Part shown: one piece after another, positions 39,518-40,285 of the stretch | How the letters are laid out: every line of letters begins with the position of its first letter | How positions within the stretch are numbered: the stretch's first letter is position 1 | Assembly: GCA_046300675.1 (NCBI GenBank) | Contig: JBKCLO010000055.1 | Coordinates: forward strand, 3,345 to 67,344 | DNA length: 64,000 nucleotides | DNA from: Ignavibacteria bacterium | GTDB taxonomy: Bacteria > Bacteroidota > Ignavibacteria > Kapaibacteriales > Kapaibacteriaceae | Reading direction: 5' to 3' | Program-made: the position numbers and the translations under genes | Notes under the pieces: generated by a model | What the model saw: the letters and a program-made list of their open reading frames with translations, nothing else | Told to the model about the DNA's origin: nothing | The model's database searches: none

Positions 39518-40285
39518 CTATAGCTGTTTTATACAGTTTCTCACAACACCTACTATCGTAAACTCCATGTCCGCAGTAATAGCAATGTCCTTATACCTGC
39601 GGTTTTCAGCCCTTAGAACTGGTCTTCCATCAACTTGCAGATAGCGCTTTACTGTCAACTCGCCATATACTTTAGCGATAACAATCTGACCAGCACGGGG
39701 CTGTACTGCACAGTCTACGATCAAGGTATCACCGTCGCTGATACCGGCGTCTGTCATAGAATCACCAACAACACGAATGAAATAGGTACTTTCCGGATGC
39801 TCCAGCAGCATATCTGCGAGATCTATCTCACGCTCGATTGTGTCATCAGATGCAGTAGGTAGGCCAGCGCTAACCCCTAATGCTAGCATGGGAATACGGT
39901 GCTTATGTGAGTCTTTTTCTCGCTTGGCTGGTGCCAATACTTCAGGTGAGTGATGCTTTAACTCCTCGATAAGCTTCTTCATCGTTGTGATGTGGTCTTC
40001 CAGGCGCTCCATAACTGTCTTCTTGACATCTTGGTTGGAACTTTTATCGCTGTGTGAAGGTAGTATTGGCGTGCCATAGCCGGTAAGCAGCCAGCCAGAA
40101 GATATCCCATAGCGCTTTTCAAGGGTGGCCAGCACATTCTGAGGAACAGACGTTCTACCAGATTCCCATGAATACACTGTAGGTACTTTTACATCCATGG
40201 TCTTTGCATACTCCTGCACACTCATTTTGAGCATGGATTCACGAATTTGCCGGTGGCGTACGCCAAGTTGGACTCTTGTAGGCAT
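39518..40285 (-). CDS. XRE/Cro-type HTH fused to a UmuD/LexA-type S24 autopeptidase
   Basis: HTH MSVQEYAKTMDVKVPTVYSWESGRTSVP; cleavage site VSAG-LP; catalytic GDSM and TVKR; C-domain closely follows UmuD (IDL...HPESTYFIRVVGDSM). Start set at ATG 40285. Confidence 0.88.
   Translation of the reverse strand: MPTRVQLGVRHRQIRESMLKMSVQEYAKTMDVKVPTVYSWESGRTSVPQNVLATLEKRYGISSGWLLTGYGTPILPSHSDKSSNQDVKKTVMERLEDHITTMKKLIEELKHHSPEVLAPAKREKDSHKHRIPMLALGVSAGLPTASDDTIEREIDLADMLLEHPESTYFIRVVGDSMTDAGISDGDTLIVDCAVQPRAGQIVIAKVYGELTVKRYLQVDGRPVLRAENRRYKDIAITADMEFTIVGVVRNCIKQL

Follow-up and report, generated by a model that had tools for sequence, protein, structure and literature searches.

A candidate LexA-like, CI-architecture repressor of a split-ImuB DnaE2 mutasome cassette in Kapabacteria-like Bacteroidota

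The HTH-S24 protein and its gene cassette

A 64-kb stretch of contig JBKCLO010000055.1 from an Ignavibacteria bacterium (hereafter, the window) carries on its minus strand a gene (40285..39518) whose 255-amino acid (aa) product joins an N-terminal helix-turn-helix (HTH) domain to a C-terminal S24 peptidase domain. We propose that this HTH-S24 protein is an autocleavable repressor and consider it probable that it serves as a LexA-like regulator with the architecture of phage CI proteins, dedicated at least to the ImuA-less DnaE2 mutasome cassette that its gene heads in Kapabacteria-like Bacteroidota. The gene begins with an ATG at 40285, has a GGAG 8 nt upstream and includes the stop codon at 39518–39520. 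The same methionine is the start of all of the HTH-S24 homologues, so a longer, GTG-initiated open reading frame (ORF) extending up to 40390 is unsupported. We found ~80 homologues of the protein. The full-length ones (45–99% identity) come solely from metagenome-assembled genomes (MAGs) labelled Kapaibacterium, Kapabacteria, Ignavibacteria, ‘Melioribacter’ and Bacteroidota; the NCBI taxonomy now places Kapaibacterium in the Bacteroidota, class Eximiradiia. The exact sequence is present in many freshwater metagenomes. The family is small, because phmmer, run exhaustively against 1.84 billion representatives, returned only 8 at E ≤ 1e-30. The window itself is ordinary chromosome (IF3, PheS, DnaJ-GrpE-HrcA, ParAB, Ogg, NuoE, squalene/phytoene synthases and PpiD), and its 64 kb contain no phage genes, recA, lexA, umuC or imuA.

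The N-terminal region (aa 4–68; 40082..40276, minus strand) is an XRE/CI-type HTH of five helices (aa 4–18, 23–29, 34–41, 49–59 and 63–68), modeled at a predicted local distance difference test (pLDDT) score of ~90 by AlphaFold2 (AF2) from a 69-sequence family alignment (mean pLDDT of the model, 77). Pfam assigns the HTH_3 domain to aa 12–66 (E 3.3e-8), in agreement with the phage repressor-like HTH recognized in a preliminary description of the gene made from its sequence. The family alignment has invariant residues at R10, H11, R15, Y26, T36, W40, E41, G43, R44 and V47 of this domain. Foldseek found BldD, DdrO and P22 c2 to be structurally alike, and the sequence search of solved structures gave marginal matches for this domain (DdrO and 434 repressor; E 0.08–0.5). 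The HTH is followed by a single long helix predicted at aa 91–112 (39950..40015, minus strand; pLDDT ~77), which spans VMERLEDHITTMKKLIEELK, the stretch previously read as a charged helical linker. The hydrophobic residues of this helix are spaced 3–4 positions apart, and the modeled helix may help in dimerization. The helical character of the linker is borne out by the model, but the linker is variable, being the least conserved part of the protein. It is missing in a subclade of 217-aa members (P0056, P0063 and P0069), in which the helix is dispensable.

The C-terminal half is an S24 autopeptidase domain (aa 132–254; 39524..39892, minus strand), matched by Peptidase_S24 (PF00717) at aa 138–248 (E 6.7e-28). 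Its beta core (aa 156–252) was modeled with a pLDDT of ~90, and the protein ends 3 residues past the last beta strand. The domain has the S24 features described in MEROPS: the S24 beta-fold, a Ser-Lys dyad (Ser176, 39758–39760; Lys213, 39647–39649) and an Ala-Gly scissile bond (Ala140-Gly141, codons GCT and GGC at 39863..39868, minus strand) at which self-cleavage is predicted. These are the cleavage site and dyad pointed out in the preliminary description. In the alignment with UmuD, Ala140-Gly141 corresponds to Cys24-Gly25, Ser176 to Ser60 and Lys213 to Lys97. Furthermore, S139, A140, G141, S176 and K213 are invariant among the 69 aligned homologues. UmuD' begins at the glycine aligned with Gly141, and the arm that follows the predicted cleavage site, GLPTASDDTIEREIDL, is highly conserved in the family and similar to the UmuD arm, GFPSPAADYVEQRIDL.

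The HTH-S24 gene is the first gene of a cassette whose remaining members are also on the minus strand. Next to it is iPolY (38527..39486), which codes for an inactive, N-terminally shortened homologue (319 aa) of Y-family polymerases with weak matches to IMS_HHH and DinB. The protein starts with MLFAMQLYG, has a clamp-like motif (QTLMF) and an N-terminus without catalytic acidic residues, and corresponds to the polymerase portion of an ImuB that is split. Downstream of it is a standalone ImuB-C (DUF6504) of 78 aa (38284..38520; PF20114, E 3.7e-5). The last member, dnaE2 (31737..34859), encodes an error-prone C-family polymerase (NF004225, 855.6 bits, plus Pol III alpha domains). Its true start is the ATG at 34859 (MEFGSLHTHSHFSF); homologues align from residue 13–15. 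Two opposite-strand genes (PIG-L and DUF2911) part dnaE2 from the rest of the cassette.

Searching 47 related loci (L001–L047) with the window proteins (tblastn) recovered the order HTH-S24, iPolY, ImuB-C, DnaE2 in 38 of the 41 loci L001–L041, mostly as one contiguous block. The two inserted genes are a trait of the window’s clade (L001–L005 and L024), and L017 has a different insertion. The homologues in L032, L042 and L045–L047 are standalone, the cassette being absent from the flanks covered. No ImuA was seen in the window or in the related loci. This gene content (inactive PolY, standalone ImuB-C and DnaE2, without ImuA) is that of the split-ImuB DnaE2 mutasome (the DnaE2X type of PMC12926913) known from comparative genomics, in which RecA is the presumed substitute for ImuA (PMC6511836; PMC12926913; PMC3765255). 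Operons of this type often include lexA (PMC6511836), whose position is taken here by the HTH-S24 gene.

We also noted how the ImuB parts are separated. The stop codon of iPolY (38527–38529) and the ATG of ImuB-C (38520) are in the same frame, two codons apart, and resemble an ImuB split by one in-frame stop. Other clades (e.g., L029) have two ORFs that overlap in different frames, and the split is therefore old and genuine. In addition, iPolY of the window’s clade (319 aa, 38527–39486) is ~60 N-terminal residues shorter than the ImuB-like forms of 375–395 aa in distant Kapabacteria (L029 8665–9852). The N-terminal polymerase part has thus been trimmed further in the window’s clade.

A palindromic operator in the cassette promoters

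The regions upstream of the HTH-S24 genes share a palindrome with the core TAC(A/G)-TTT-TGTA and the extended consensus TCTACA-N3-TGTAGA, which distant family members carry in two tandem copies. In the window, a copy designated O1 (TTCGACATATTGTAAAT; 40313–40329, minus strand; 22.6 bits with a position weight matrix, PWM) lies in the spacer of the regulator promoter (TTGTCA-17-TAAATT; 40312..40340, minus strand), identified by promoter scan, and overlaps its -10 hexamer. The mRNA leader of the regulator is ~20 nt and includes the GGAG. An element of the O1 type (≤2 mismatches to the 11-bp core) precedes the regulator gene in 40 of the 47 loci. Autoregulation through a palindromic operator in its own promoter is a trait of canonical LexA; here the operator, in the spacer and -10, is conserved across the family and would be the binding site of the HTH-S24 protein.

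Two more copies are present in the cassette. O2 (TCTTACGTTTTGTATAA; 39494–39510, minus strand; 16.8 bits) overlaps an internal promoter (TAGATA-16-TATAAT; 39493..39520, minus strand; promoter scan), in which 6 nt separate the -10 from the iPolY ATG. Sites of the O2 type are kept in L001–L024 and L034, with 5–6 nt between the -10 and the iPolY ATG. O3 (ATTTACGTTTTGTATAT; 34869–34885, minus strand; 20.0 bits) forms with a -10 (TATATT) an element at 34868..34885, 8 nt upstream of the dnaE2 ATG. It is kept in all five of the related genomes with a detached dnaE2 whose dnaE2 sequence was covered and, independently, in L017. Two independent rearrangements have set dnaE2 apart from the cassette, each time with an operator and promoter of its own, which shows the cohesion of the regulon through genome rearrangement. 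Each transcription unit of the cassette (the regulator, iPolY and, where detached, dnaE2) has the palindrome in its core promoter, and the core promoters that these operators overlap are sigma-70-like. At iPolY and dnaE2, the end of the -10 hexamer is 5–8 nt before the ATG (39486–39498; 34857–34873), no Shine-Dalgarno sequence is present and the spacing is kept in 26 loci. With the -10 so near the ATG and the spacing conserved, the iPolY and dnaE2 mRNAs are probably leaderless.

We scanned 697,622 bp of Kapabacteria sequence with a 17-bp PWM trained only on the windows upstream of the regulator genes. At a threshold of ≥16 bits, the scan returned 90 distinct sites, compared to ~1 in shuffled sequence. 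Among them, 35 fell outside the training windows; 26 of these directly precede iPolY, 7 precede a detached dnaE2 and 2 are at other places. Hence, 88 of the 90 strong sites were at cassette promoters. Two repair genes of the window, Ogg (26875–27537) and the gene for a BFN/UVR protein (63201–63824), had no operator site in the PWM scan. We judged to be due to chance the intragenic operator-like sites at 54156–54172 of the window, 377–393 of L015 and 8981–8997 of L047. The first of these (ATCTACCTGTTGTAGAT, 15 bits, plus strand) is inside a 1989-aa ORF (50954–56923) and probably arose by chance.

The layout of the operator has a precedent. The HTH_3-type non-canonical LexA proteins of Bacteroidetes bind operators demonstrated by electrophoretic mobility shift assay (CTAA-N5-TTAG, GGA-N5-TCC and, in E. 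anophelis, the variant TTAC-AAATT-GTAA; PMC8565304). The operator described here, (C)TAC-N5-GTA(G), has the same dyad-N5-dyad layout with another sequence, the nearest being TTAC-N5-GTAA.

Other features border these sites. Divergent from the regulator gene is a gene for an AlkB-like 2-oxoglutarate (2OG)-Fe(II) dioxygenase (40322..40912, plus strand, within an ORF at 40247–40912; PF13532, E 2.3e-33) with an uncertain start (40304 or 40322). Its 5' end overlaps O1 and the regulator promoter, and the gene is kept in L001–L014, L024 and L034. By position, the AlkB-like gene may be co-regulated through O1 and damage-inducible. A conserved inverted repeat (GAAACT-N6-AGTTTC) is located at ~34893–34916 of the window, flanked by the DUF2911 gene and the dnaE2 operator. 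In the relatives L002–L005 and L024, the inverted repeat at dnaE2 is GCGAAACT-N6-AGTTTCGC. The repeat may serve as another regulatory site or be left over from the rearrangement.

Most likely, the HTH-S24 protein is a DNA damage-sensitive, self-cleaving repressor that keeps the error-prone polymerase cassette off in these uncultured freshwater Bacteroidota. In the proposed mechanism, a dimer of the protein would bind the palindrome TCTACA-N3-TGTAGA (core TAC-N5-GTA) through its XRE/CI-type HTH. The palindrome is positioned between the -35 and -10 of the three promoters (own gene, iPolY/ImuB-C unit and dnaE2), where binding would block RNA polymerase. After DNA damage, RecA-single-stranded DNA filaments would stimulate self-cleavage at Ala140-Gly141 by the Ser176/Lys213 dyad, and this would part the HTH from the dimerizing S24 domain and derepress the cassette. 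The domain architecture, the intact catalytic and cleavage residues, the operon linkage and the placement and conservation of the operator were observed; binding of the operator by the HTH-S24 protein, rather than by another factor, the RecA dependence of cleavage and the reach of the regulon beyond the cassette are inferences. Contigs assembled from metatranscriptomes of lake and freshwater samples (runs X25, X27, X29 and X30) cover parts of the regulator gene (39644–40262), and one contig spans the ImuB-C/PIG-L junction (38192–38390). Within window positions 38000–41000, none of the contigs from the four runs covered iPolY. This coverage loosely fits an expressed autorepressor with a silent cassette.

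Several points weigh against the repressor model. Operator binding and cleavage are deductions from sequence. A canonical LexA encoded elsewhere in the genome could bind the operator instead. AF2 gave aa 116–151 a pLDDT of <50 and did not place the cleavage loop docked in the active site; because of this low score, the model is silent on the cleavable conformation. Finally, the RNA data are low-depth assembled contigs in which carry-over of DNA is possible.

The scope of the regulon bears on a second explanation, namely that Kapabacteria use the protein as their global SOS master regulator, in full substitution of LexA over recA, uvr, ruv and other genes, with the cassette as its most visible target. 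This is possible, if doubtful. The Bacteroidetes genomes surveyed lacked a canonical LexA and used HTH_3-S24 proteins as global SOS repressors (PMC8565304). Furthermore, the genes of homologues without an adjacent cassette are preceded by a clear operator (L032 and L042) or by an operator-like sequence (L045–L047). In addition, a stray site in L029 (GTACACATTCTGTAGGT, 18.3 bits; 14760–14776, minus strand) is located 35 bp upstream of a 218-aa ORF unrelated to the cassette (SMI1/KNR4-like by eye) and is unexplained. The near confinement of strong sites to cassette promoters argues against a global role, in a 698-kb sample that included no recA or uvr loci, as do the Ogg and BFN/UVR genes of the window without a site.

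Resemblance to UmuD and to prophage repressors

The preliminary description stated that the C-terminal domain follows UmuD closely. The protein scored 125.9 bits with the NCBIfam model of the UmuD subfamily (NF007621; cut-off 110) and 83.6 bits with the LexA equivalog (TIGR00498; cut-off 110.95), which matched the C-terminal part only. Among solved structures, the best sequence match was E. coli UmuD (86.6 bits, E 1.5e-23), followed at a distance by the best LexA (53.5 bits), and no CI chain was matched at E ≤ 0.01. Foldseek also ranked UmuD' first (E 1e-9, 44% identity), ahead of the C-domains of LexA (36–38%) and lambda CI (26–28%). By these comparisons, the S24 domain resembles UmuD more than it does LexA. 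However, the likeness is moderate (~44% identity) and common to prophage repressors. Among predicted viral structures, phage CI repressors matched the protein over its whole two-domain architecture.

The second tier of phmmer matches consisted of ~250-aa proteins from Chlorobi (Prosthecochloris and Chlorobiaceae) that aligned over nearly their full length at 32–38% identity. The two that we placed on contigs (P0221 and P0273) are both in prophages, with divergent AlpA-like, RecA-dependent nuclease and terminase genes as neighbors; one of the repressor genes is followed by an Abi gene. We take these second-tier proteins to be repressors of prophages, of the CI type. P0104 and P0221 align colinearly with the window protein (34% over 236 aa, E 2e-38, and 32% over 238 aa, E 6e-32), also at the W(L/I)LTG.G motif with which the HTH ends. 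Clustering with ordinary phage CI repressors had been named at the outset as grounds for discarding the interpretation of a dual function, and these grounds are given in part, as the closest full-length relatives outside the family are these prophage repressors (32–34% over ~236 aa). Shared ancestry with the repressors of temperate phages in the Fibrobacteres-Chlorobi-Bacteroidetes (FCB) group is therefore plausible.

Membership in the UmuD subfamily model has to be read accordingly. The prophage repressors scored 113.4–113.6 bits with NF007621, compared to 125.9 bits for the window protein and 167.7 bits for a UmuC-linked protein. Passing the model is not proof of UmuD function, because prophage CI-type repressors pass it too. 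For the same reason, PGAP and IMG give the Chlorobiaceae prophage repressors (L083 7001–7747; L084 7001–7786) the names ‘translesion error-prone DNA polymerase V autoproteolytic subunit’ or ‘DNA polymerase V’. HTH-S24 proteins in the FCB group thus seem to be mis-annotated systematically: the UmuD model and the Pol V names cover both the regulator family and the Chlorobi prophage repressors, and neither is evidence of Pol V.

The S24 domains of the Kapabacteria family averaged 46% identity to short S24 proteins, 42% to the Chlorobi prophage repressors, 41% to UmuD, 34% to LexA, 26% to lambda CI and 18–19% to the non-canonical LexA proteins. A neighbor-joining tree of the domain (124 columns, 200 bootstraps), the phylogeny called for in the preliminary description, recovered the clades of non-canonical LexA (100%) and Chlorobi prophage repressors (98.5%). 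The Kapabacteria family had 72% support in a smaller set and 8–16% when distant homologues were added. We do not claim that the family is nested within UmuD, since the tree left the backbone joining UmuD, LexA and the other clades unresolved. Membership in the Bacteroidetes non-canonical LexA group was rejected, because the S24 domains of the two groups are 18–19% identical and form separate clades (100% bootstrap), and the Kapabacteria family lacks the C-terminal helical extension. The family is not canonical LexA, UmuD or Bacteroidetes non-canonical LexA.

The likeness to UmuD raised the possibility of a dual function, an idea already put forward in the preliminary description. In the form considered here, the intact protein would repress, and its fragment (aa 141–255), released by RecA-triggered cleavage, would form a UmuD'-like dimer that joins the iPolY/ImuB-C/DnaE2 mutasome, plus RecA, as a subunit. 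If so, one cleavage event would couple the induction of mutagenesis to its activation, and the dimer would be a stoichiometric subunit. The repressor half of this proposal is well supported by the operators at the gene’s own and the downstream mutasome promoters; for the UmuD' half we found no positive evidence and regard it as improbable. The closeness of the S24 domain to UmuD, the conserved arm after the cleavage site (GLPTASDDTIEREIDL, like UmuD’s GFPSPAADYVEQRIDL), the tight linkage to the cassette in 38 genomes and the lack of ImuA from the window and loci are consistent with a structural role. However, the UmuC partner is missing, as no UmuC homologue was found within ±8 kb in any of the 47 loci or in the 64-kb window. 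By contrast, 31 loci among L049–L079, which were matched by the S24 domain only, have an adjoining UmuC. Furthermore, the Y-family protein available as a partner is inactive and shortened at its N-terminus, and the cleft of Pol V that takes the UmuD' arm may be gone. The prophage CI-type repressors are equally UmuD-like, and lexA-linked cassettes elsewhere mean that linkage alone implies no structural role. Some homologues (L032, L042 and L045–L047) are, moreover, standalone. Finally, the UmuD-like regulator UmuDAb of Acinetobacter (46% to UmuD, 37% to LexA) was tested for such a role: it did not complement a umuD mutant of E. coli, and the study concluded that it is a regulator (PMC4807011).

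It is more improbable still that the protein is a UmuD-type accessory factor only, with a vestigial or non-regulatory HTH, and that another factor such as a canonical LexA binds the operator. The family name used by PGAP and IMG (‘DNA polymerase V autoproteolytic subunit’) and a possible canonical LexA elsewhere in the genome would agree with this explanation. Yet the HTH is strongly conserved, with at least 10 invariant residues, and confidently modeled (pLDDT ~90). An operator in the gene’s own promoter is a hallmark of autoregulated S24 repressors, its layout is that of the HTH_3-type S24 repressors and, again, there is no UmuC. As to a CI repressor of a prophage or remnant lying by chance beside polymerase genes, its CI-type architecture, its top viral structural matches (phage CI repressors) and its nearest outside relatives (prophage repressors) speak for it, but it is effectively refuted by the housekeeping neighbors with no phage genes nearby, the synteny of the chromosomal cassette across ~38 species-level genomes and an operator that controls iPolY and dnaE2.

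The searches also returned other proteins that join an S24 domain to N-terminal sequences. P0080, on an 860-bp ENA contig, has a LexA winged-helix N-domain (PF01726, E 4e-25) and a Kapabacteria-like S24 half, with a switch at VVGDSM. An assembly chimera is the probable explanation; otherwise, the protein would be a naturally occurring domain swap. In MAGs of Thiomicrorhabdus, Methylophaga and Legionellales (L055–L062; e.g., L058 2643–3299), UmuD homologues of 170–224 aa lack a Pfam HTH and share a conserved, basic extension at the N-terminus (KRGGxRQGAGRKKGSGKFGE.TKV.RVPES). Their genes are divergent from umuC in Thiomicrorhabdus and Methylophaga, and the proteins may be UmuDAb-like regulators outside Moraxellaceae. 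A Sulfuricella MAG (L050 5392–5976) encodes a 194-aa protein with a weak LexA-type winged helix and an S24 domain directly upstream of umuC, in the usual place of umuD.

Comparison with known S24 regulators

The LexA-like repressor that we favor would represent one more lineage among the non-LexA S24 repressors of the SOS type and would act through a new operator on a split-ImuB DnaE2 cassette. Our literature search returned no paper naming both Kapabacteria and LexA. If confirmed, the family would be an independent addition to a short list that comprises HdiR, UmuDAb, the Bacteroidetes non-canonical LexA and FddR. It would also be the first proposal of a regulator and an operator for the split-ImuB mutasome (iPolY, ImuB-C and DnaE2), a type known to date from comparative genomics alone, and of an SOS-type circuit in the uncultured Kapabacteria.

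E. coli UmuD and UmuD' have the equivalent cleavage bond, serine and lysine, and a similar arm motif after the cleavage site. However, the region before the bond has 24 aa in UmuD and 139 aa with an HTH in the protein described here, which has no UmuC. More similar in organization is Acinetobacter UmuDAb, in which a UmuD-like S24 domain (~44–46% to UmuD, ~36–37% to LexA) also has an N-terminal DNA-binding extension. As is proposed for the Kapabacteria protein, UmuDAb represses genes for error-prone polymerases; no canonical LexA has been identified in its lineage. It differs in having an extension of 59 aa without a Pfam HTH and in requiring the co-repressor DdrR. Furthermore, UmuDAb controls umuDC and arose in a umuDC lineage, whereas the family described here is linked to a DnaE2 cassette and has prophage CI-type proteins as its nearest full-length relatives.

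The non-canonical LexA proteins of Bacteroidetes (Sanchez-Osuna et al., 2021; PMC8565304) come from the same phylum in the NCBI taxonomy, combine HTH_3 and S24 domains and use an operator of the dyad-N5-dyad type. Both groups regulate error-prone polymerase genes, presumptively so in Kapabacteria. The groups differ in S24 sequence and in the C-terminal extension, which the Kapabacteria family lacks. The non-canonical LexA proteins exert global control, which is possible, if doubtful, for the protein described here; its sites, in the 698 kb without recA or uvr loci, are almost only at cassette promoters. According to the same study (PMC8565304), no Bacteroidetes UmuD homologue has a DNA-binding domain. 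The LexA proteins linked to mutasome cassettes (lexA2-imuA-imuB-dnaE2 in Pseudomonas putida, lexA-imuB-C-polY in Geobacter and the split-ImuB/DnaE2 operons, PMC6511836) share the position of first gene. They are likewise autoregulated S24 repressors with a palindromic operator, presumably cleaved upon RecA activation. However, the Kapabacteria protein has the five-helix HTH of the XRE/CI type in place of the LexA winged helix (no match to PF01726; TIGR00498 below cut-off), its S24 domain is nearer to UmuD and its operator, TCTACA-N3-TGTAGA, is new.

Phage CI-type repressors co-opted by their hosts (HdiR in Lactococcus and FddR in Francisella, PMC13148647) have the same succession of XRE/CI-type HTH, linker and S24 domain and form self-contained units of regulator and target. 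Unlike the Chlorobiaceae prophage repressors (P0221 and P0273), the family described here is chromosomal, apparently monophyletic and tied to iPolY, ImuB-C and DnaE2. Its operator recurs at internal, probably leaderless, promoters.

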